Shown piece after piece: positions 48-15,774 of a stretch of 15,775 nt of DNA. The first letter of the stretch is position 1; each line of letters starts with the position of its first letter. The position numbers and the translations under genes are program-made. The notes beneath the pieces are model-generated. The model searched no databases. It was not told the DNA's origin and was given only the letters and a program-made list of their open reading frames with translations. The stretch covers positions 74,871 to 90,645 of the forward strand of contig JAHQJS010000001.1 in the NCBI GenBank assembly GCA_019057385.1, read 5' to 3'. Source of the DNA: Candidatus Borrarchaeum weybense. Lineage in GTDB: Archaea > Asgardarchaeota > Sifarchaeia > Borrarchaeales > Borrarchaeaceae.

Positions 48-3000
48 TTATTCAAGAAGACCCCGTAATCTTTCTTCGGCCTTTCTTTCAGTAATATCCT
101 CATGCTCATCCACTTGGATTTTACTTTCCTTTTTGGCCTTAGCCTTCTTTTCTTTTTCTTCTTTTTCCTTCTTAGCTTTAGCTTCCTTCTCAGCCTTTTC
201 CTTTTTGGCCTTTGCTTCCTTTTCAGCTTTTTCCTTCTTAACCTTTTCAGCCTTGGCCTTAGCATCCTTGTCTTTCTTCTCTTCTACAGACGAATCCTCT
301 TTAGACTCATCCGCTGGTGTTTCCTCTTCGGAATTTTCTTTCGCCTCAGGCTCTTCTGCTGGTGTTTCCTCTTCCTTCACCTCTTCAGATTCTTTTGCTT
401 CGGGCTCAGATTTTTCTTCCTTGTCATCCTTGTCATCTTTGTCGTCATCTTTCTTGTCGTCCTTATCATCCTTGTCATCTTTGTCGGCCTCTCTTTCGGC
501 CTCAGAAGGAACCACATTTTCTATATCCGCTAGCTTCATTCCATAATCTGCGACCTTACTATACTCTCCAGCCTTGAGAGCATCAGATGCCATCTTAATC
601 AAAGCTTTTACACCTTTGGCCACATCAATCTCGTTAATTCCGCACTCTGCCAACTTCTTGAGAATTTGCTTTTCGTTGTCACCCTCTTTTGTAGCCTTGC
701 CTTCCTCCTGCTTTTCCAGCTTTTCAGCTTCTTTGAGAAGCTCCTCAGCTTTGGCTCTCAAACTCTCCGGAGTTTTTTCCTCTTTCATTTCAATATCCCC
801 TACATTTTCATTTTCAGATTTGTTTTGCTCCTCCGACTTTGGAGCTTCTTCTGTTTCCTCCATGGCTTTTCCGCTTCCATCCTTGTCTTTCTTCTCAATA
901 CCAACCGCTCGTTTTTGATACTGAGTATAATCTTTACCAAATTTCTTAAGCATTATAGCATCAATGAGATCTTCTTTCTCAGGCAATGTTTTAGCCTGAT
1001 CACCCATGGCATCTCTGAGCTCTTGCATGGACATCCCATCAAGGATATCCAGTTCTTTTTCAATGGCGGCTACGTCTTCATTTACTGCAAGGCCTCTTTT
1101 AGCTATCTCCTTCTCAACTTCTGCCTTATCAGATTCATAAGTAGCAATTCGATATCCTTCATCCATATGTTTGTAGAATGCTACGAGTTCATCATCCTTC
1201 ATGTCGTAAATGTGGCAAACACATTCGTTCTTTTCCATTGGACAAGGCTCTCCAGCTTCTTTTCTTTTGCCTACATCGCTCATCTGCTTCTGACGTGAGC
1301 CTTTGAACGGTCCTGTCCCATCCCTTTTTCCTGGCGTTTCCTTGCCTTCCTCCTGCTTCTCGCTTTTAGTCAGGAGCTCGTGATAATCAGTTTCATCCAT
1401 ATTTGATAGAGCATCAAGAGTGAGTTCCCTCAAGCCTTCTTCAGAAATCTTGCCAGTTTCATCTTTCCACATGGAAACGAACTCAGGACTAAAACTAAAT
1501 TCTTTTTCATTAATACTAATGATAACATCAGTATCTGATTCCAGAAGAACGTAAACATCAAAAGTATTTCCTTGTGGATCAGTTACTTTCATCTCCTTCA
1601 TTTCTTTTGGCTCAGGAGCTTCTTTGGATTCGGATTTTCTTCGATCTACTTCTACTACATTTCCCTCAGGGTCAACAAGCTCCCAGGCGGAATCCTCCCA
1701 AGCGAAGCCATCGCCTACAGGAATTTCTTTATGATTAAAAGGTTGAATAAACTTTTCATCCGCGTCAGATACTTTGAAATCTTGAGTAGGATCCGATTTC
1801 AAGCGGATTGTCCATCCTCTAATATCAGGAGCCACTCCATCCAACTCTAAATCTTTCCAGCCTAGATCAGTCCAAGTTGTTAACTCATTAATTTTTCTCT
1901 CATTAGTTTTAGATTCTGCTATCCTTTCTCCATCTTTTGACTCCATTCTATGAGATGGTTTTCCTCTTGGATCCTCTTTACCCACATACACTCCTCCAAT
2001 GGCAGTGGCTATTTTTGTGCCAGCGGCATCGGCCGCCTCTTCACTTACAAACGTAAATATCACAGTTGCGGAACGACTTCCTTCTCTGGTCTTTAGAACT
2101 TGCCAACCATCTCCAAGTGACGCCTTATTTATAAAGATGATATTATTTTCATGTGAGGTAAGCTGCTCATTTACTTTCGACTCTCTTGGCTCTCCAAGAT
2201 AACTCATAACAGCACGGGAAATCAATGTTCGTAATTCTTCATTCTCTGTAAGCTGCTTCCATATAAATTCTTCAGAAAAAGTTTCGCCCAGTTCTTCTTC
2301 TGCTTCCCAAGCCTCCCGGATGATAGCAGCCATATTATGAAGTACAGTTCTTTCCCATCCTCTTTCATCTACTTTCGATTCAGATAACTTATCAACTTCA
2401 GCATTATAAGCGTTCCAATAACTTCTATCAGAACTACTTAATGTCTGACCCTTAAGCAGCTTATCTGTAATATCTCCCATCCTTTTCTTAATAGCAGCTT
2501 TATCCCTATTCTTCAGATCCGTTTTGAATCCTTCCTCTATCTTTGATTCATGCTGCTTACTCGCCGCAAGTCTCTCAGGCTCTTCCTCTTCAGGAGCTAG
2601 AGGCTTTTTCTTAGGTTCTTCATACATCTCTACCTCAGGCATCTCTTCTTCTTCTAACCTAGGAAGGATATATTTCAGGAATATTCCACGCTCTATTGAC
2701 GCTATATCAACTTCTCGGATAGCATCAATTATAAAATCAACTACTGTCTCTTCCGAAACTTCTATATTATGATCCCGAGCTGAGAATCTCTTTACTCCTT
2801 CTTGGTCTACAACTACAAAGTCTTCAATCTCGCCTTCTTCACCTTCATCTGTGATAAAATAGTAATGCGTGTCTTCAGTCTTTCCGAGATATTCTTTCCG
2901 TGCTTCTACTGGCTTTTCAGGTTCTTTTACCTCTTCTGGTGGAGGTGGCGGTGCATCTGGATCTTCCTCATCTGGTTCATAATCTTGCTCTGTTAGCTTT

Positions 3001-3422
3001 TTCCTTCCAGCTTCGGCATTCAGGTCTTTGGATTCTTTAATTTTAGATTCAAAACCTGGTTGGTCTCCTAAATCTAATTCTTTAACTGCATTCAGAATGA
3101 TATCTTCTGCTTCAAAAGTTGTGATTCCAAACTTTCTAGCAGCTTCATCTCTAATACCTATCTCATCATAATGACCCTTGGTATCTATCTGATGCATTAT
3201 TTGTTTCTTAATGTACTCCAGAGCTTCTTGGTATATCTGCTCACCAATTCCTTCATTAGCCCTCTTCTCAGCAAGATCGCTTTCGTGAATCTTATCCAGA
3301 AGATTAGTAAAGCGTTCATCTTCTTTCAGCTTGTCATTAGCAGAGCTATGAACGGTTTCTTCAACCTTTTTCTTCTTGGGCATGCCAGGATTTTCTGCTA
3401 TTAAGTCAAAATATTTATCCAT
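48..3422 (-). CDS. 1124-aa acidic modular protein; probable prohead core/internal head protein or polyprotein
   Basis: Long ORF with an AAGGA SD-like site just upstream of the ATG. Very Glu/Lys-rich, with repeated ESKxxE and [ILV]xE motifs between small globular-looking segments and a low-complexity charged C-terminus. The CDS itself is secure; the function is inferred. Confidence 0.85.
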   Translation of the reverse strand: MDKYFDLIAENPGMPKKKKVEETVHSSANDKLKEDERFTNLLDKIHESDLAEKRANEGIGEQIYQEALEYIKKQIMHQIDTKGHYDEIGIRDEAARKFGITTFEAEDIILNAVKELDLGDQPGFESKIKESKDLNAEAGRKKLTEQDYEPDEEDPDAPPPPPEEVKEPEKPVEARKEYLGKTEDTHYYFITDEGEEGEIEDFVVVDQEGVKRFSARDHNIEVSEETVVDFIIDAIREVDIASIERGIFLKYILPRLEEEEMPEVEMYEEPKKKPLAPEEEEPERLAASKQHESKIEEGFKTDLKNRDKAAIKKRMGDITDKLLKGQTLSSSDRSYWNAYNAEVDKLSESKVDERGWERTVLHNMAAIIREAWEAEEELGETFSEEFIWKQLTENEELRTLISRAVMSYLGEPRESKVNEQLTSHENNIIFINKASLGDGWQVLKTREGSRSATVIFTFVSEEAADAAGTKIATAIGGVYVGKEDPRGKPSHRMESKDGERIAESKTNERKINELTTWTDLGWKDLELDGVAPDIRGWTIRLKSDPTQDFKVSDADEKFIQPFNHKEIPVGDGFAWEDSAWELVDPEGNVVEVDRRKSESKEAPEPKEMKEMKVTDPQGNTFDVYVLLESDTDVIISINEKEFSFSPEFVSMWKDETGKISEEGLRELTLDALSNMDETDYHELLTKSEKQEEGKETPGKRDGTGPFKGSRQKQMSDVGKRKEAGEPCPMEKNECVCHIYDMKDDELVAFYKHMDEGYRIATYESDKAEVEKEIAKRGLAVNEDVAAIEKELDILDGMSMQELRDAMGDQAKTLPEKEDLIDAIMLKKFGKDYTQYQKRAVGIEKKDKDGSGKAMEETEEAPKSEEQNKSENENVGDIEMKEEKTPESLRAKAEELLKEAEKLEKQEEGKATKEGDNEKQILKKLAECGINEIDVAKGVKALIKMASDALKAGEYSKVADYGMKLADIENVVPSEAEREADKDDKDDKDDKKDDDKDDKDDKEEKSEPEAKESEEVKEEETPAEEPEAKENSEEETPADESKEDSSVEEKKDKDAKAKAEKVKKEKAEKEAKAKKEKAEKEAKAKKEKEEKEKKAKAKKESKIQVDEHEDITERKAEERLRGLLE
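130..486 (-). repeat. Coding low-complexity tandem repeats: (DKD)n, EETPA x2, AKAKKEKAEKE-like units
   Basis: 9-nt periodic units (tccttgtca-like) at about 420-483 and AKAKKEK.EKE units at about 130-262 lie within the C-terminus of the 1124-aa ORF. Confidence 0.85.
2617..2640. repeat. Copy 1 of an exact 24-bp dispersed direct repeat encoding PEVEMYEE
   Basis: tcttcatacatctctacctcaggc is identical to 10252-10275. Confidence 0.9.
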
Positions 3423-5511: not shown

Positions 5512-5763
5512 TCACATATGTTTCTTTAAGTGCTCAATCTTTTTGTTTGCTTTTTTCTTCTTAACTTCTCTCTCCAACCTAAGAGCATCCAACTTAGTCA
5601 TTTCTTTGCTGACTATCCGTAGAGTTACAGGCAATCTCGTTCTTGTATATTTAGCCCCCTTACCAGAGTTATGAGCATGAATTCTTCTTTTGATATTGTT
5701 GGTGGCTCCACAATAAAGTGTGCCATCACTACACTCAACCAAATATACAACCCAGTTGTTCAT
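5512..5763 (-). CDS. GIY-YIG nuclease, UPF0213 (YazA/YhbQ-like) family
   Basis: [41 protein letters not shown]...ALRLE..VKK matches the hallmark UPF0213 pattern. Confidence 0.92.
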
Positions 5764-5770
5764 ATAATTC

Positions 5771-6601
5771 TCAGTCGCCTTTTACCCACTTCCTGCGCCA
5801 CTCGCCTTCCTCTGCGGCGATCATCACGCCTTCTGCTGAGCCAACAATCGGAGTTTTATATCTTGGATAACTGTACCCTTGAGGATCTATACCAATGAAT
5901 CGCCTTCCATCCGTAGCTATAACCGTGACATTTCCTTGGCCATCTAAAGCGTCAAGAAGGTCGGGGTCTGGAATAGTCTCTTCGAAGTCTTCCAGGGTGT
6001 AAGCAAGAGTATTAAACTCTTCCTCAGTCACTTCGAATGGGCCAACCTGTTCTCCACCTTGCTCGAGAATAGGCTTTCCCTCAGAGTTAACATCTTCATT
6101 AGTATCCTCTGGAATATCTCGAGTTTTGTCTCCGCCTTTCTTGTTCTCCATAGGCTCACTTTCTTCAGCTCTTAGCTTATCGAGTAATTCCAACTTCTCT
6201 TCAGTATCCATCTTATCCAAAATCATTCGGGCTATGGCATAAGGAAGCGGACCTAATTCTGCTTTTTCGTCGAAGAGAGTCTCTATCTTCTCAAGAGGTA
6301 GATTGATTAAAAGTTCAAACAGTTCATCCTCTTCATCAATATCCTCCACCTCTTGCTCTTCAACTTCTGCTGGCTCATCATCCTCCTTGACTCCATCTTT
6401 GTTTTCTTCAGAAGATTCTTCAGACTCCAGAGCAATTACTTTTTCCTTGTCGCCATCTTTGCCTTTTATCTCTTTGGGTTTGCCTCCCATAGAATCCTTA
6501 GCTTCGTCTTGGACATCCACATTCTTGTTCTCATCGTTCTCTACTTTTTCTTTGAAGCTCTCCACCAACTTTTCGAAATTAGCATCGTTTCCTGTACTCA
6601 T
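5771..6601 (-). CDS. 276-aa acidic protein with a C-terminal D-x-Q-G-Y-x-Y-x-R-Y domain; probable internal head or core protein
   Basis: GAGGT SD upstream. Acidic low-complexity N-terminus with LVE, VKE and ILE motifs, and a C-terminal globular segment containing [13 protein letters not shown]. Confidence 0.85.
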
Positions 6602-7211: not shown

Positions 7212-7376
7212 CTACCACTTTCCCGTCCCTGGTCTTTTTCCTTTTGTTCCACAACCGGGACAAATATCATAAAGGTACTCGCCTCCTATATCAACGTTCA
7301 GGTTATATAGCATACCACATTCCGGGCAGCAATGTTCTTCTTCATTAAGAACCGCGGGATATTTGTTCACTCCCAT
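7212..7376 (-). CDS. 54-aa Zn-ribbon protein (not in the ORF track)
   Basis: Manual translation MGVNKYPAVLNEEEHCCPECGMLYNLNVDIGGEYLYDICPGCGTKGKRPGTGKW* has two CPxCG knuckles. A strong AAGGAG SD lies 6 nt before the ATG. Confidence 0.8.
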   Translation of the reverse strand: MGVNKYPAVLNEEEHCCPECGMLYNLNVDIGGEYLYDICPGCGTKGKRPGTGKW

Positions 7377-7995
7377 TTATTCTCCTTCTCTCGTTTATGA
7401 ATTTAGTCCAATATTCTCGATTCCAGTTAACTCTACTATTGCATCCTCCACAAAGAGATAATAGATTTTCTGGATCGCAATTGTTCTTGTCATAATCAAT
7501 ATGATGAATCGCCAGTTTCCTACCAAGCTCCTCTTCCTCAGCGCTTTCGAGCTTCCCGCACAACTGACAAATATGATTATCCCTTCCTCTAATCGATTCT
7601 TTTAATTCTTCGTTGAATTTTATAGGATAAGGAAGATTTGAAGAGCCTCCACTCCAATTATGATTATTTTCGCCACTAACTTTTTCCAATACCTCTGGCC
7701 GGTTCATCGCCTCTTTTTGCGCAATACTAATATTCATAACATGTTCAGGTGATAATGTTCGGCCAGTTAATGAACTCTTTATCTTTTCAATAGCTTCTTT
7801 TGAATGACTTTCTCCTTTCCAAGCATTATTCATATTCTCAATGCACTTCTGAGCAATCTCAGGATGTTTTTCAAAATAAGCTTTCATCCTCCCACTTTGC
7901 TTAGACCTTTCTTCAAGGCTTTGCCATCTTCGCTTAGCCGCTACTCTAAGTTTTTCCTTATATTTTTCGTCTCTTGCAAAAACCCTGCTTGGCAT
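7345..7995 (-). CDS. Free-standing NUMOD3 + HNH homing endonuclease
   Basis: NUMOD3-like repeats (HSKEAIEKIKSSLTGRTLSPEHVMNISIAQK), a GENNHNWSGG linker, then RDNHICQLCG...IHHIDYDKNNCDPENLLSLCGGCN (HNH/HNN with Zn knuckles). Confidence 0.9.
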   Translation of the reverse strand: MPSRVFARDEKYKEKLRVAAKRRWQSLEERSKQSGRMKAYFEKHPEIAQKCIENMNNAWKGESHSKEAIEKIKSSLTGRTLSPEHVMNISIAQKEAMNRPEVLEKVSGENNHNWSGGSSNLPYPIKFNEELKESIRGRDNHICQLCGKLESAEEEELGRKLAIHHIDYDKNNCDPENLLSLCGGCNSRVNWNREYWTKFINERRRINGSEQISRGS

Positions 7996-9371: not shown

Positions 9372-11387
9372 TTAACCTACGGGTTTATAATGTTTACTTT
9401 TGTAAATCGGTCTGTTATCCCATTCCTCTTGAGATTCAGTTCCGGTATATCTATTCCCTTCCTCATCTTCTTTTATGAAGTATTCATCGTCCACATCCCA
9501 ATATGTTTTTCCACCATCATCAGAAAAACATGATGGGCTTCTCTTCGACTGCCATCGCATACCTTTAACATCTTTTGGTTGATGATTAACTCCATTTTCA
9601 TCCTTCTCTGTTAAATCTTGCCACTCGTCAGGATTATCAGTAAGTTCGGTCAAAGGCTTCCAGTCGGCTAACTTGCTAAATAAATCAGTTGTCCATGCAG
9701 CACTAAAACCTGAATGTCCTTGCCCAGCGAATGCTTGGATTAATTCCATAACAGCTTCGCCAAGAGCTCCTTCATAATCGCTATCCTTATCAAATAACCC
9801 AGCAAGCTCTAACTCATATTTAGCATGGTCAACTAAACCCTCACTAACAGTATATCCAGTCTTATGATGATATTTCATAAGGCCAGATACCACTAAAGAT
9901 CTCAAAACTTCTTCTTCAGGGATACTCAAATTTCTTGAAATCTTTCTAACTGCTTCTTTAGAATCTACATCCTGGCCGATAAGTGTTTTGAACTCTGCAG
10001 CTATCTCTTCATCGTGGGCGGGTGTAATATCTTCATTCTTAGTTGATATATGATGTAGCAATTGCTCTGCATCTTGCCTGCTAAGAGGCTTGGATAATAT
10101 CTCTCCTGTATTCCTATCTACCAAATCCCAGTAGCCATCTCTAACAGGATGTAGTTCAATATCTTCAACCGGTGGGTATATTTTCTTCTGAGGAGTTTCA
10201 TCCGGCTGCTCATCCCATTCATCTTCATCATCATTCCACTCTTCCTCAGGCTCTTCATACATCTCTACCTCAGGCTTAAGCCCTACACCATATCGCTCAA
10301 TCTCTGCTTTAACCATAGTTCTGATTTCATCATTCCATTCAACATACCATGGTGCAGTACTTGCAACATAATCTAATACCGAGTCAACATCAGCTTGTTC
10401 CTCTGGTATCTCTTGGAGATAGGCCTCAATTTGATCTGTTACCCAATCAGGTACTCTTTCTTCTCTTGCCTCTTCAACAACTCCTTCTACTTTCCAGCCG
10501 GCCGCTTTTGCATCAGCTATTGAATCAAACATCGAAACAGCACCAGCAGCATGTGGACCTTTATCATATATGTAAAGCCTTCCGCCTTTGCCTAAGTAAA
10601 GCTCCCAGTCTTCTGAACCTACCCTGGATAAGATAACCTTCTTAAGGCCATCTTCATTTATAGCTTCCCAAGGTTTTCGCTCTTTAGATTTTCCAACTTT
10701 AAGATAGCTTGTCAAATCTTGAGCAGAAGAAATATGAGATCTGGTTTTATCATAAACTCCAGTAGAAGTATAAACAGTACTAATTGGATAGTTTTTGAAA
10801 AGGTACTTAACCGATGCTACTTGTTGAGGTGTTAACTTCCTCTTGCTTCTTAAACCAAGATCCTCATCTTCAGCATCAACATAACCTGCAATGGCTCCAG
10901 CCATCATCAACTCATCATATGAAGTCTTCGCCAACTTAGCTGCTTCAGCATGCGAAAAGGTAACTGGTACGATTGTTCCATCGGTAAGAAGCCAAAACTT
11001 TCTCCAGTCTGCTTCCATTGGATCTTCTTTACCAAAAGTAGTAACCGTCAAACGTCCGTTCAGGATATCCTTAAACCTAACCCTCAACATGTTTTCCGGA
11101 TTTGCTACTTTAGTAGTTGCTCCAGCTTCTTCTATCTCAATCACCGGCTCTACTGTAAATCCATCTCGAGAGCAAAGGAATTCATTCTTCTTAGCCTGGA
11201 GCTTCATTACCATTTTACGGAAAGCCTCGGAATTCTCTTTGCACATATCATCCGCAGTATCAATATCATCGAGTATTCCATAGAGAGCCTTAGCGATGTA
11301 TTCCCAGCTCTTTCCTTCAAAGAGGAACTGAAGCCTACGCTCTATCACTTCTCTATCTCTTATGTTTTCGAAAATACTCTCAATCAT
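9372..11387 (-). CDS. 671-aa acidic multi-domain protein (LDDIDTA domain ... C-terminal GHSGFSA/Tad3-like domain); probable polyprotein
   Basis: Long ORF overlapping the stop of the upstream gene. About 7 compositionally distinct segments are separated by LFE, IEE, INE, VEE, KNE and VSE linkers. The C-terminus reads HAKYELELAG...AVMELIQAFAGQGHSGFSA...KPLTELTDNPDEW...WQSKRSPSCF. Confidence 0.88.
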   Translation of the reverse strand: MIESIFENIRDREVIERRLQFLFEGKSWEYIAKALYGILDDIDTADDMCKENSEAFRKMVMKLQAKKNEFLCSRDGFTVEPVIEIEEAGATTKVANPENMLRVRFKDILNGRLTVTTFGKEDPMEADWRKFWLLTDGTIVPVTFSHAEAAKLAKTSYDELMMAGAIAGYVDAEDEDLGLRSKRKLTPQQVASVKYLFKNYPISTVYTSTGVYDKTRSHISSAQDLTSYLKVGKSKERKPWEAINEDGLKKVILSRVGSEDWELYLGKGGRLYIYDKGPHAAGAVSMFDSIADAKAAGWKVEGVVEEAREERVPDWVTDQIEAYLQEIPEEQADVDSVLDYVASTAPWYVEWNDEIRTMVKAEIERYGVGLKPEVEMYEEPEEEWNDDEDEWDEQPDETPQKKIYPPVEDIELHPVRDGYWDLVDRNTGEILSKPLSRQDAEQLLHHISTKNEDITPAHDEEIAAEFKTLIGQDVDSKEAVRKISRNLSIPEEEVLRSLVVSGLMKYHHKTGYTVSEGLVDHAKYELELAGLFDKDSDYEGALGEAVMELIQAFAGQGHSGFSAAWTTDLFSKLADWKPLTELTDNPDEWQDLTEKDENGVNHQPKDVKGMRWQSKRSPSCFSDDGGKTYWDVDDEYFIKEDEEGNRYTGTESQEEWDNRPIYKSKHYKPVG
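10252..10275. repeat. Copy 2 of the exact 24-bp dispersed direct repeat encoding PEVEMYEE
   Basis: Identical to 2617-2640. Confidence 0.9.
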
Positions 11388-12061: not shown

Positions 12062-12826
12062 CTATACCAGCATGTTCTTCTTAATTGTAGAAACAGCTAG
12101 CTTAGTATCCGAATCTTGCTTGCCGGCTAGTGAAGACTTCATCTCAATAAGGAACGCTTCCTTAACTGCTTCAACAAGCTGCTTTTCCCTCTCAGATAGT
12201 TCAGTAGTAGCCACTCCAATAGTAGCAGCGATAGCTTTCTCTACCTCAGGCAATGGTTTCTTATTCTTAAGCCCGTTGAAGATATCTTGAATTCCCATAA
12301 CCACTTGAGTTATATGCTTGTCTTTAGCGGTTAACTCAGCAGTAGATTTGCCCTGAATATCAGCAACTGCCTGTTCCATAATTGTCTTGGAAATCTCGCC
12401 AGGCTTACTTATCATCAAGCCGGTAAGTCCGGATACACCTATTCCCGCTAATCCAAGTGCTACAGAAACAATTCCTTTAGGACCAAACCATGCCGCAGCG
12501 CGAGCTTTATCTTGCTCAAAAGCATCTGCTACGATCTTCTTAAACTTGGTATAGTCTTCTCTGTCTCTTGCCTTCTTAAGGTCTAGTTGAAATTGAATCT
12601 CTCGAGTTGCCATATCTAAATATTCATTCAGCAACTGCTGCTTAGCAACGTTCCAATAACCTTCAAGTGCGTTAGGATCACATACACCTGATTTGAGAAC
12701 ATACTCTACAGCTTTCTCATTTCGCCTACTACCAGGCATTATATGCCATGCTAAAGGACCAGATACACATCCGGCTACCATCAGAAATATACCAAGAATA
12801 AACCCTGCAATTTTTGTCCTACTCAT
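12062..12826 (-). CDS. Lipoprotein with an additional internal TM segment (254 aa)
   Basis: Signal peptide and lipobox MSRTKIAGFILGIFLMVAGC; a central Gly-rich hydrophobic stretch GIVSVALGLAGIGVSGLTGLMI; helical remainder. Confidence 0.8.
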   Translation of the reverse strand: MSRTKIAGFILGIFLMVAGCVSGPLAWHIMPGSRRNEKAVEYVLKSGVCDPNALEGYWNVAKQQLLNEYLDMATREIQFQLDLKKARDREDYTKFKKIVADAFEQDKARAAAWFGPKGIVSVALGLAGIGVSGLTGLMISKPGEISKTIMEQAVADIQGKSTAELTAKDKHITQVVMGIQDIFNGLKNKKPLPEVEKAIAATIGVATTELSEREKQLVEAVKEAFLIEMKSSLAGKQDSDTKLAVSTIKKNMLV

Positions 12827-12855
12827 CTTACTTTCCCTTTCTAATATGTTATCTT

Positions 12856-13611
12856 TTATTTACGGCTTACCTTTTTCTTATAACTAAATCCAGATACTCC
12901 TGCTCCTTGCCGGATATCAATCCTGTCGGATTCCGCAGAAAGTGATGCTCGGTACACCTCCATGACATCTTCAATCTTCTTGAAGAATCCCAGGCTGCCT
13001 CCTGTGGGCATTCCCGCTAACATTATCCCAACAAGTTCTCCATCTGAATTATAAGCAGGTCCACCGCTGCAGCCTCCCGCACCATAGCTATCTACTTGCA
13101 CTAAATCTACATTCTCAAAAATATCTCTACCAGGATGTGATACAATTCCCTTGGCCAGTGTAAATTTGAATTGCAGATTAAACGGAGTACCTATTGAATA
13201 TACATCCTCGCCCAACTTCGGACAACGACCCGGATGGGCTATGGCCATCTCTTCAATATCTACAGTTATAATAGCAACATCTGTTGCTTCATCAATATAA
13301 ACACTTGTGGATTCCCGGATAGTGCCATCACGTAGTTCAACCTTAGCCTTATCCTGATTGATCATAGTGAATATATGAGCGGCCGTAGCTACTTTATTGT
13401 CCGCTATAAATACTCCAGCTCCGCCTCCTGTTCTTCCGTTTGGTAATGTTACATGTATTGTTGCAGAGGCAGCTACCATGTTATCATATATGCTTCTGGG
13501 ATTATGACTTTCTTTCAATTCAGACCGGACGGTTGATACGCTTAATGCTATAATGTCTCCGATACATGCCAAAATTATAGCAACAAATACAAATGTTTTA
13601 ACTCGTTTCAT
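12856..13611 (-). CDS. Trypsin-like (S1, HtrA/Trypsin_2-type, no PDZ) serine protease with N-terminal signal or TM anchor
   Basis: Catalytic triad motifs TAAHI, DVAII and GCSGGP, plus IGTPF and KGIVS. Hydrophobic N-terminus. AAGGGAG SD upstream. Confidence 0.9.
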   Translation of the reverse strand: MKRVKTFVFVAIILACIGDIIALSVSTVRSELKESHNPRSIYDNMVAASATIHVTLPNGRTGGGAGVFIADNKVATAAHIFTMINQDKAKVELRDGTIRESTSVYIDEATDVAIITVDIEEMAIAHPGRCPKLGEDVYSIGTPFNLQFKFTLAKGIVSHPGRDIFENVDLVQVDSYGAGGCSGGPAYNSDGELVGIMLAGMPTGGSLGFFKKIEDVMEVYRASLSAESDRIDIRQGAGVSGFSYKKKVSRK

Positions 13612-13691
13612 CTTTACTCCCTTTCGCTAAAATTAAAAATGACTCATTATGATGTTTCCGACGAGCTTTTACGCTTGATTATCTGATTAGT

Positions 13692-15326
13692 TTATATCAT
13701 AACTTTCCTTATTGCCATACTCAGCGTAGACCAGACACTTCCACTTTGAACACGATATTCAAACTCTAAATTCGGATCAAGTTCTACTTCTCTTTCATAA
13801 GCCTGTGTCATGCCAGCAATTACTGAGGTATAAATTCTTCCTGTGTTGACATAATTAACATTACCTTTTTTCCTAAGAAGGATCAATCTCATTGCATCAT
13901 TAACTGTGGCTATTATAACTACCCCAATACGTTTTGTATCGGCTGGGACTTTACCTGCACAAGAAAAAGTATGCCAATCATTATCTTTAATAAAATCATT
14001 TACCAACCAGTCATAATTAGCTGGGTCTCCCGCATCTACTGTGCTTCCACCAGAGCCTCCACCACTGGGGTAATCGTGAGTATGTAAAGCTGTTATTGAA
14101 CCATCGGTTAGCTCTTCCAATTCAGCTGCTGTAACGCCACTCTCTATTGCAGAAACTACTCTATTATTAATTGCAAGAATACCGTCTGGGGTATTGGGTG
14201 GAAGTATGATGATAGATCCATTCTGATCCGGCAACTCTGCCGTCCTTACATTACCTGGTGTAATTTTAGATAAATCAAGTTTCGCTCGCTTGGATGGATC
14301 TTTACCATCAAATAATTCCAGACCATCTATATCCGGCGTGGTTAGAGGAATCATGCTATCTATCGCAGCTTCTACTTCCTGGAAAGGATTATGAACAGTT
14401 ATTGTAGTAGAACCAGCAAACAATAATCCTACTGCCCTTTGACCATTCTTCTCTACAAGCAAACTACCACTATCTCCACCTTGGGACATTAAGGTAGTAA
14501 TTATCTGGTTCTCAAATCTCGCTGTGCCTCCTGGGTAACCTCCAACATCCACCGTGGCATTTATCTGGATAACTTCACCTTCAAGGTATTGAGTCGTTCG
14601 ACCATACTTACGGACGAGCATACCTAAGCTTGCTTCTACTGAACCAGATACTATTCCTATATCCAATATCTCATTTGGTATTACAACATCTGGATTCACT
14701 GGCTTAGCTAAGGCACAGTCTACTTTGTTTAACGCTCCTGGGGTGTAATCTATCGGAACGAAGTTCTCTAAATGAGCAATTGTATCTGCTAGAAGTCCAC
14801 CGTCATAAACACCTGGCTGATAAATTGGGTCGCCAATGCTGGCATTGTTGCCATTAGCTAAGACATGATTATTACTGAGAATATAAACTTCATCTGCTTT
14901 CGGTTGAGCATCAGAAGGCCATCCTATTCTTAAACCATTTACTTGAAAGAATGACTCACCGTCCTTAATAGCTGAGCCTTGAGACCTTGCTATCGTAACA
15001 CCAAGAGTACCAGCGGTGGTACTTGGATGTCCTATACTAACTCCACCTGGAGCAGGGCGGAACTTTCCAGTTGGAATATGATGTACTAATAAATCATTTG
15101 CTTCAAAAACATCTGTTGAAACACCATCAATAGTAGCAGGAACAACATCCTCAGGTGCAAGAGTTCCCGCATCTACTTTCTGAGAAACATTTATTACTAC
15201 TGAAATCTCAGTAGTTTTCACCCCACCAACAAATTTAAAACCTGTTGATACACCAACAACATTCGCCTTACCCATTAATTCTTCTGTGTGATTGTCTTGA
15301 ATCTGTATAATCTCTTCAACAGTCAT
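13692..15326 (-). CDS. Nal1-type trypsin-like serine protease fused to tail-fibre-like C-terminal modules (544 aa)
   Basis: Likely start is the ATG at 15326 after AAGGA. Pro-domain NVVGVSTG.K...V..K...VP..IDGV.TDV, then RPAPGGVSIGH, GTLG, ILSNNHVLA (His), VDCALA (Asp), KYGRTT, GGDSGS (Ser), GLLFAG. This is followed by DPSKRAKLDLS.IT.G..RT..LPD..G, an LHTH motif, a Gly linker and a final beta domain. Confidence 0.88.
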   Translation of the reverse strand: MTVEEIIQIQDNHTEELMGKANVVGVSTGFKFVGGVKTTEISVVINVSQKVDAGTLAPEDVVPATIDGVSTDVFEANDLLVHHIPTGKFRPAPGGVSIGHPSTTAGTLGVTIARSQGSAIKDGESFFQVNGLRIGWPSDAQPKADEVYILSNNHVLANGNNASIGDPIYQPGVYDGGLLADTIAHLENFVPIDYTPGALNKVDCALAKPVNPDVVIPNEILDIGIVSGSVEASLGMLVRKYGRTTQYLEGEVIQINATVDVGGYPGGTARFENQIITTLMSQGGDSGSLLVEKNGQRAVGLLFAGSTTITVHNPFQEVEAAIDSMIPLTTPDIDGLELFDGKDPSKRAKLDLSKITPGNVRTAELPDQNGSIIILPPNTPDGILAINNRVVSAIESGVTAAELEELTDGSITALHTHDYPSGGGSGGSTVDAGDPANYDWLVNDFIKDNDWHTFSCAGKVPADTKRIGVVIIATVNDAMRLILLRKKGNVNYVNTGRIYTSVIAGMTQAYEREVELDPNLEFEYRVQSGSVWSTLSMAIRKVMI

Positions 15327-15336
15327 ATGTTTTTCC

Positions 15337-15774
15337 TTATGCAAACCTATGTATTGTCAAATTAGTTCTTTCACGAGCACCTTGTAAGTTTCTGGGAGCA
15401 GCATTAGATTGAGCAACGAATATTTCTATATACTCTCCGGCAGCTAAATAAACATCTTTAAAGCAGGATACATCAATATTACCTACTGTTGGAAAACAAT
15501 ATCTTAATGTCTGGTCAACAACCTCCCCATTAACTTTTATTTGAAGTTGACAGTTATTGTTTGTATCGAGACTTTGAAACCTTCCATTTGCCTTAACAGA
15601 ATAATACCCAGCATTCGTAGCCGTATACCTATAATTCGTAGAATTATCAAATTCACCATCAATGTCATAATCTTCAGAATCAAATTCAACTTTTTCAAAA
15701 GCGAGGCCTCCTGAAATAGACTGGTTTGTAGAAAGATAAACACTTATTTTCGAACTGAATCCTCCACCTACATT
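15337..15774 (-). CDS. Partial CDS (start lies outside the window): C-terminal C1q/TNF-like domain, probable tail fibre or receptor-binding protein
   Basis: Open frame of 145 codons, not in the ORF track: ...SKISVYLSTNQSI...EKVEFDSEDYDIDGEFDNSTNYRYTATNAGYYSV...LQIKVNG...DVYLAAGEYIEIFV...TNLTIHRFA*. It matches the C1q pattern F-D....D..G.F....Y/F-T....G-Y-Y and L..G(D/E).I. Confidence 0.82.
   Translation of the reverse strand, partial: NVGGGFSSKISVYLSTNQSISGGLAFEKVEFDSEDYDIDGEFDNSTNYRYTATNAGYYSVKANGRFQSLDTNNNCQLQIKVNGEVVDQTLRYCFPTVGNIDVSCFKDVYLAAGEYIEIFVAQSNAAPRNLQGARERTNLTIHRFA

Follow-up and report, generated by a model that had tools for sequence, protein, structure and literature searches.

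We analysed a 15,775-nucleotide stretch of DNA, hereafter the window, that corresponds to positions 74871-90645 of a 179,096-bp contig (JAHQJS010000001.1) in an assembly of Candidatus Borrarchaeum weybense, and in which nearly all genes read on the minus strand. The subject of the analysis is P0001, a carrier or polyprotein of 1,124 aa (17% Glu, 13% Lys) whose coding sequence is the open reading frame (ORF) at window positions 48-3422 of the minus strand, stop codon included. The start of the ORF is confirmed because homologues keep the same N-terminus, MDKYFDLI. P0001 consists of conserved cores and exchangeable small domains, with repeated glutamate-ended motifs in the linkers between them, and we think it reasonably probable that it is a cleavable prohead-core carrier of a distant T4-like myovirus, cut by the S77 protease encoded in the neighbouring gene.

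In the direction of transcription, a T4-type portal gene lies upstream of P0001, and P0001 is followed by a 448-bp tRNA gap, by the protease gene P0022, by P0021, a Gp23-family major capsid protein (Pfam 2e-36), and further downstream by the tail sheath gene. The gap holds tRNA-Leu(TAG) and tRNA-Thr(TGT) (contig positions 74513-74748, which is 123-358 nt before window position 1), and the gap between the carrier and protease genes of relatives measures 220-1,220 bp. P0001 is a head-module gene that stands directly upstream of the protease fusion and the Gp23-family gene in its own genome, and the order carrier, S77 fusion, Gp23 is kept in 5/5 related metagenomic or viral loci examined. The gene order in T4 is 20-67-68-21-22-23, and therefore P0001 occupies the place of the small prohead-core genes 67 and 68. 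Cultured phages related to this one through their capsid protein (Thornevirus, e.g. Listeria phage LIS04) have the protease-capsid pair and lack such a carrier.

Backbone and cassettes of P0001

P0001 has no match in Pfam and a single marginal match in PHROGs, to a family of unknown type, and neither tblastn nor megablast finds a relative in 50,697 phage records. About 170 relatives are found among 1.8 billion cluster representatives. The relatives have in common three collinear cores, which are A (about residues 170-260, with 45-69% identity in more than 90 homologues), B (611-693, with more than 60 homologues) and C (about 890-970), and the N-terminus MDKYFDLI... and the C-terminal tail are also conserved across the family. 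Cores A and B are both present in 57 representatives, invariably in the order A then B, with as few as about 30 and as many as about 440 aa between the two. The two cores are adjacent in about 12 relatives, and in P0001 four cassettes (~300 aa) intervene. This variable spacing is the gain and loss of cassettes between conserved anchors that the original prediction, made from this sequence alone, had expected to see in homologues. The same prediction described P0001 as a chain of unrelated exchangeable modules, which describes the variable cassettes well, but the conserved leader, cores A, B and C and the C-terminal tail form a backbone that it had not foreseen.

To delimit the units we use homology blocks and two structure models. 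The AlphaFold2 model of the whole protein (56-row alignment) has a mean predicted local distance difference test score (pLDDT) of 61, with confident domains at residues 60-120, 170-260, 284-348, 606-693, 782-839 and 915-970, and the second model covers residues 400-515 (23-row alignment, pLDDT 80). A MAFFT alignment of 140 homologous fragments was discarded, as all the fragments were stacked on core A. The homologues of cassette 4 were misplaced by MAFFT in this way, and because of that cassette 4 is without a confident model.

From the N-terminus (we give residues, then window positions, all on the minus strand), P0001 starts with the leader MDKYFDLIAE (1-10; 3393-3422), which ends I-A-E at residue 10 and is conserved in the family, followed by a three-helix N-terminal domain (59-115; 3078-3248; pLDDT ~90). 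A linker with ESKIKE, ESKD and KKLTE sites (125-145; 2988-3050; pLDDT <50), in which ESKIKE takes residues 125-130 (3033-3050), leads to core A, a beta sheet with two helices (170-260; 2643-2915; pLDDT 84-98). In the linker after core A, a 24-bp stretch encoding PEVEMYEE (2617-2640) is identical to window 10252-10275, in a linker of the Tad3-bearing protein described below. Next is the ESKIEE site (292-297; 2532-2549), at which homology blocks end. Helical cassette 1 (298-347; 2382-2531), which in other phages is also found inside protease fusions, and helical cassette 2 (354-413; 2184-2363), which has 2-3 homologues only, are separated by the ESKVDE site (348-353; 2364-2381), at a break between helices 330-348 and 353-378; the helical unit 284-348 has a pLDDT of 80-90 and the unit 353-408 of about 60. 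The ESKVNE site (414-419; 2166-2183) is unstructured in the model and lies 8 residues before the first strand of cassette 3 (420-493; 1944-2165), a beta-beta-beta-alpha-beta domain at 427-480 with pLDDT 94-98 in the 400-515 model. Outside this fold comes the triple site ESKDGE / ESKTNE / RKINE (494-513; 1884-1943; pLDDT 50-66), then the Trp-rich cassette 4 (514-597; 1632-1883; 8-10 homologues), which falls in a homology block of residues 504-600, and a linker with ESKE (598-610; 1593-1631; ESKE starts at residue 598, its Glu codon at 1629-1631) that ends M-K-E directly before core B (611-693; 1344-1592; pLDDT 90-97). Core B is followed by the basic DGTGP peptide cassette (696-730; 1233-1337; disordered in the model), by a Cys/His-containing unit ending A-V-N-E (731-781; 1080-1232), and by a four-helix unit, HeH-like according to the original prediction, with no Pfam match (782-839; 906-1079; pLDDT 87-96). 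Helical core C (890-970; 513-755), seen both by homology and in the model, precedes an acidic and then Lys-rich low-complexity region (976-1098; 129-497). The protein closes with the ESKIQVDE site (1099-1106; 105-128), conserved in the family, and an amphipathic helix ending L..LL[GE] (1107-1124; 51-104), also conserved, with pLDDT 76-78. By pLDDT and by homology blocks, the mini-domains that had been read from the sequence are real units.

Foldseek finds nothing at E<=0.001 for the full P0001 model against the PDB. The model of cassette 3 is weakly like the anti-CRISPR AcrIF5 (Foldseek probability 0.98, E 0.17) and weakly like DUF2188 (template modelling score 0.61 by target and 0.42 by query, over 56 residues), and we use neither as a function call. 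Feature searches of the ESM Atlas with cores A and B give no usable match.

Several cassettes of P0001 also occur in other contexts. Cassette 3 is found elsewhere as complete stand-alone proteins of 76-90 aa, and the DGTGP peptide as stand-alone basic proteins of 45-70 aa. In every multi-cassette homologue cassette 3 begins directly after [VT][DNE]E, and it ends where its stand-alone homologues end. Some homologues of cassette 4 lie directly behind a leader ending NVDE, and the Cys/His unit is also N-terminal of Tad3 domains in other proteins. Cassettes that belong to P0001 homologues from other phages recur in four other proteins of P0001's own phage, which are the protease fusion P0022 (contig positions 70762-74469), a 797-aa leader-bearing protein (contig positions 61782-64175), a 276-aa acidic ORF (window 5771-6601, minus strand) and a Tad3-bearing ORF of 671 aa (window 9372-11387, minus strand). 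The 276-aa ORF has a second leader type, which in other phages heads proteins with cassettes 3 and 4. The Tad3-bearing ORF is itself modular and closes with a Tad3 domain, an inhibitor of type I Thoeris (Pfam 5e-33). Its N-terminal and Tad3 parts are seen again in proteins with the Cys/His unit of P0001, and it is possibly a sister carrier by which an anti-defence domain is loaded. The peptide PEVEMYEE is absent from all other family members, which together with the identity of the 24-bp stretch that encodes it points to a recent exchange between carriers at the DNA level. The 24-bp stretch holds a Shine-Dalgarno-like GAGGT and then an in-frame ATG.

The two ends of P0001 have features of their own. 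Its leader resembles the capsid-targeting sequence of T4, a concept described in PMC9026906. Downstream, at contig positions 59568-66825, 7/9 consecutive and otherwise unrelated genes begin M.ELLEKL..E followed by A or S. These seven leaders end [LI]-x-E, and one of them heads the 797-aa cassette-sharing protein; LFE.L-type leaders head several genes in relatives. At the other end, a conserved KESKI.VE site parts the C-terminal 18-residue helix from the body of P0001. No other protein of the contig has a tail like this one, and an alignment of the tail to T4 gp68 by hhalign is negative (probability 0.35%).

The repeated motif and the candidate cleavage site

All the motifs listed in the original prediction are present in P0001 where it had reported them, and ESK tripeptides at residues 130 and 1039 come in addition. 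Against 20,000 composition-preserving shuffles, ESK occurs 10 times in P0001 (1.32 expected), ESKxxE 6 times (0.23 expected, p<5e-5), and ESK[IVL]xE 4 times (0.04 expected), and none of the shuffles reached any of the three observed counts. The enrichment of ESKxxE over a composition-matched background, which had been put forward as a check, is therefore present. Two related patterns, [SK]K[LVI].E (7 against 0.73) and [KR][LVI].E (14 against 5.3), are also above expectation. In 161 homologues there are 299 ESK tripeptides where 72 are expected, in the context ESK[VIT][ND]E[EQ]. A DNA-repeat origin of the motif was considered and rejected: the serine of ESK is encoded five ways (TCT, TCC, TCA, TCG and AGT), which indicates selection on the peptide. 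ESK is concentrated in P0001, as each of the other 347 ORFs of the contig (348 in total) has at most two.

The motifs had been claimed to lie between folded or conserved units and not inside them, and homology and models agree on this. In 57 homologues, 1/199 ESK tripeptides falls inside cores A and B where 39 are expected, a depletion that is partly trivial because conserved cores without ESK remain without ESK. Homology-block starts fall -3 to +20 residues from an ESK of P0001 in 132/248 cases, with 49 expected (p=0.005), and block starts and ends combined give p=0.002. Around ESKVNE there are 16 block starts at residues 410-419 and 4 more at 420-429, and the homology of cassette 4 begins at 504-509, within the region of the triple site. 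In the whole-P0001 model, the ESK at 125/130, 414, 1039 and 1099 are in segments with pLDDT <50, ESK348 is in a helix break, and no ESK is found within a core of pLDDT >90. In the 400-515 model, ESK414-VNE419 and ESK494/503 are outside the 427-480 domain, at pLDDT 50-70.

As for the linker itself, the proposed ESKxxE is indeed repeated at junctions, but ESK is missing from some of them. The general linker is K-[LVI]-x-E, which is the T4 gp21 rule, with ESK as a frequent yet dispensable upstream extension. Of 56 homologues aligned at the junction that precedes core B, 51 have Glu at P1 and 48 have L, V or I at P3; typical texts are ESKNLIE followed by MKVTD, or IKKLIE followed by MKV. The residues directly before cassette 3 in homologues are KKVDE, ETNE, EEVDE, VVVDE or KTNE, ESK being optional. 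A conserved K[LVI][TN]E, with acidic residues after it, precedes core A by about 35-45 residues, and in P0001 it is the KKLTE at 141-145. Many of the sites have an E-S-K upstream, which gives the form ES[KE]-[VIT]-[ND]-E, and the protease fusions of this phage and its relatives bear like sites (SESEVDE, ESEEIDE, ESKVNE). The pattern [IV][DN]E is over-represented in the protease fusion, in the capsid protein, in P0001 and in a 255-aa protein encoded 0.8 kb downstream of the portal gene; these four proteins, together with two short ORFs that have a single match each, take the top ranks on the contig. From the junction texts and the fusion sites, the common denominator is thus an aliphatic-x-Glu, usually with a Lys before it.

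S77 proteases cut after Glu (PMC9026906; PMC5694885). The T4 gp21 rule is L/I-X-E, with the cut after the Glu (PMC9026906), and the proteases of phiKZ and SPN3US recognise S/A/G-X-E and A-X-E, respectively (PMC5694885). Positioned at about P6-P4, ESK could provide extra subsite contacts, or it could be the place of a second cut after its own Glu, with Ser at P1'.

The neighbouring protease and the phage contig

The original prediction called for a gp21-like protease in the same genome, and the S77 protein P0022 is encoded by the very next gene downstream of P0001. P0022 has 1,235 aa, of which the first ~225 are a T4 gp21-type prohead protease to which ~1,000 further residues are fused. The N-terminal domain matches Pfam Peptidase_S77 (PF03420, 4.5e-9) and phrog_207 head maturation protease (1.5e-29). 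As a single sequence the protease domain has no match in the PDB, but a profile of six S77 N-terminal domains finds the T4 gp21 structure 5jbl (3.9e-5). The invariant His75 and Ser128 of P0022 align with His85 and Ser140 of wild-type T4 gp21, and the protease is apparently active. P0022 is itself modular: the protease is followed by a module at residues 345-446, by a pair of Zn-ribbon units with [VL]DE on either side and by a long coiled coil; the module 345-446 is common to the C-terminal part of P0001 homologues. The single ESK of P0022 is near residue 210, where the protease domain ends and where self-trimming is known for S77 proteases.

Between the head genes of the window there is an HNH homing-endonuclease-like gene (window 7345-7995, minus strand; phrog_8446, 1e-14), as well as a small ORF that matches a PHROG endonuclease marginally (window 5512-5763, minus strand; E 0.008), and GIY-YIG genes are at similar places in relatives. 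The region 12062-15344 (minus strand) encodes a lipobox-like 254-aa protein, a 251-aa Trypsin_2 protease and a 550-aa protease with an NAL1_N-like N-terminus. At least the first two of these look exported, which is unusual beside a head module.

Judged by its Gp23 capsid, T4-type portal, S77 protease and sheath genes, the contig is the genome of a T4-like myovirus. It has 39% G+C, a strong strand bias and 11 tRNA genes. This T4-like contig is binned with an Asgard archaeal genome, the cause being either mis-binning or an unrecognised host link, and the contamination of the assembly is 7%. No spacer-like match connects the phage contig to the remainder of the assembly, core A is found neither in 185,579 representative genomes nor in 4 congeneric genomes, and a virus of this kind is absent from an Asgard virome paper of 2026. 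The contig also encodes lipobox-like and Tat-like signals and a Thoeris inhibitor domain, features that suit a bacteriophage but are not restricted to bacteria. That the 179-kb contig belongs to a T4-like virus of an Asgard archaeon is a more remote possibility, to which the binning alone points.

Processing model, known systems and rival explanations

For a cleavable prohead-core carrier, the computations directly give the enrichment of the motif, its position in linkers, the turnover of cassettes, the shared leader and the synteny with an apparently active S77 protease. What we infer is that P0001 enters the prohead, which bonds are cut, how many products arise (about 10 in the original prediction) and whether the fragments are kept and ejected or expelled. 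P0001 would be built into the head core by means of its N-terminal leader, its C-terminal helix or both, and the gp21-type protease of the next gene would cut it C-terminal to Glu at K-[LVI]-x-E. As the sites are in flexible linkers between small autonomous domains, processing would free cores A, B and C and the cassettes, which here would be two helical ones, the 55-residue alpha/beta one, the Trp-rich one, the DGTGP peptide, the Cys/His unit and the four-helix unit, and the targeting ends would be removed in the process. Cassettes are swapped among several carriers, namely P0001, the protease-scaffold fusion and other leader-bearing proteins. We propose more tentatively, as a possibility to keep in mind, that this amounts to plug-and-play cargo, in which effector cassettes from a common pool are shuffled at the DNA level between carriers, with the standardised protease-site linkers as junctions, and a single maturation protease frees the resulting cocktail within the head, to be co-injected with the DNA. 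The effectors would possibly be anti-defence proteins like the Tad3 domain of the sister carrier. In T4, a ten-residue leader and a three-residue protease site suffice to load and deliver foreign proteins, and they are used for this in engineered T4 vectors.

Several results weigh against a cleavable carrier. Plain [ILV]xE is not enriched in P0001 (39 against 31 in the shuffles, p=0.06) and is not excluded from folded blocks, so that the prediction of sites leans on the extended motif. The other head proteins of the phage have almost no ESK, which hence is no general requirement of the protease. ESK292 is in the first turns of a predicted helix, with pLDDT 61-80, and the L-x-E that precedes core B reaches the first strand of that domain, which means that folding may account for part of its conservation. 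By Pfam and PHROG, no sequence homology is found between P0001 and T4 gp67, gp68, gp22 or the internal proteins, and neither Pfam nor fold searches assign a function to any P0001 domain.

Among known systems, the T4 internal proteins IPI, IPII, IPIII and Alt are alike in belonging to a T4-type head module with an S77 protease and in having a short leader ending I/L-x-E. They are also small, diverse, fast-evolving cargo, some of it basic, and for P0001 a cut after Glu is likewise predicted. They come as separate genes with one leader each, whereas P0001 has many units in one chain, internal sites and a conserved tail. T4 gp22, gp67 and gp68 are cut into several pieces, and the internal proteins lose their targeting leader (PMC9026906). 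P0001 shows no sequence or profile similarity to gp67, gp68 and gp22, which it resembles in gene position, in multiple L/I-x-E sites and in acidic and basic low-complexity tails; P0001 is however 5-14 times longer than they are, and it has folded autonomous domains and variable cassettes. In phiKZ, 201phi2-1 and SPN3US, many head-internal proteins, among them inner-body and ejection proteins, are also processed after Glu, at a motif of three residues, by a gp21-related protease (gp175/gp245); long propeptides with several sites occur there, and the protease removes part of its own C-terminus (PMC5694885). Those proteins are encoded by separate genes or paralogue families and have S, A or G at P3, whereas in P0001 P3 is aliphatic, the site has the ESK extension and the units are fused.

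Polyvalent proteins, which belong to phages and to conjugative elements, are large and multidomain, are encoded beside virion genes, are predicted to be packaged and delivered, and have shuffled domains with possible proteolytic release (Iyer et al. 2017, PMC5512222). P0001 is also encoded among virion genes, and its domain content also varies between relatives. Polyvalent proteins carry 2-15 recognisable conflict-related domains, such as MPTase, ART, methylases or ParB-like, often with an embedded peptidase, whereas P0001 has no recognised domain, its cassettes being without Pfam matches too, and would instead rely on a separate prohead protease and on standardised linkers. Like viral polyproteins, P0001 has a repeated consensus at the borders of independently folding units, and like S77 substrates it has aliphatic-x-Glu sites at accessible positions, including the one that ends the N-terminal leader. 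In the herpesvirus assembly protein, with its M-site, and in the C-termini of phage scaffolds and proteases, a capsid-binding tail is removed by the maturation protease. P0001 looks similar to such tailed scaffolds in its conserved C-terminal amphipathic helix behind a conserved protease-type site; capsid binding is a property of theirs.

The same observations could be explained in other ways. As the main alternative, P0001 could be a core or scaffold protein, a functional analogue of gp67, gp68 or gp22, which helps to form the head or to set its size, is chopped at the same sites and then expelled, its inserts being filler or size-tuning spacers. Its gene does stand where T4 has genes 67/68, just before the protease gene, all relatives keep cores A, B and C, the leader and the tail, as a structural role predicts, and the acidic and Lys-rich low-complexity C-terminal part is reminiscent of two T4 tails, the acidic one of gp67 and the basic one of gp68; moreover, the core proteins of T4 are cut into several fragments, most of which leave the head (PMC9026906). 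We find a scaffold of this kind rather unlikely, as the inserts are autonomous folded domains that also stand alone and move between carriers, sister carriers in the same phage bear the Tad3 anti-defence domain, a long, scaffold-like coiled coil is already present in this phage as a fusion to its protease, and the hhalign comparison of the tail with gp68 is negative. If on the other hand ESK..E were a phosphorylation or cross-linking motif, or one for repeated docking to the inside of the capsid or to the scaffold, P0001 could be an uncleaved, beads-on-a-string internal or virion protein, similar in this to the N4 virion RNA polymerase, a multidomain protein that is packaged unprocessed (PMC5512222). 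The invariant E-S-K, which is not what the T4 rule requires, and its near confinement to the P0001 family and some protease fusions would suit an uncleaved protein. That is nevertheless improbable in view of the junctions without ESK, which still have [VLI]-x-E directly before the start of a domain, of the apparently active Glu-specific-type protease gene that is always adjacent, and of the fact that such sites part both the N-terminal leader and the C-terminal tail from the body.

A different enzyme could also do the cutting, after the Lys of ESK or after Glu, and the window offers two candidates 9-12 kb upstream, the Trypsin_2 protein (6e-21; 12856-13611) and a phrog_20754 'protease' (2.5e-64; 13692-15344), with a trypsin-like gene also upstream in the related locus L013. 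The 251-aa trypsin-like protein has a hydrophobic signal-like start and a lipobox-like neighbour, and given that N-terminus it is probably exported and outside the prohead; the 550-aa protease has no such segment. As the related locus L011 has no trypsin-like gene within 10 kb, and as the junctions without ESK retain just the x-E part, we give the trypsin-fold enzymes very little credence.

With the P0001 chain read as a carrier that the S77 protease cuts, what appears to be new here is that capsid targeting and processing of the T4 type are applied to a carrier with many cassettes and standardised linkers. The family of ~170 clusters, which is without annotation in Pfam and PHROGs, is a constant component of the head module in an uncultured clade of T4-like phages from sediments. 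If P0001 is processed as predicted, the family would represent a type of polyprotein in which a conserved backbone and standard linkers are combined with freely exchanged cassettes. This would explain the fast diversification of the sets of injected proteins in large phages, and the family would provide a catalogue of small domains with candidate roles in early host take-over or anti-defence.

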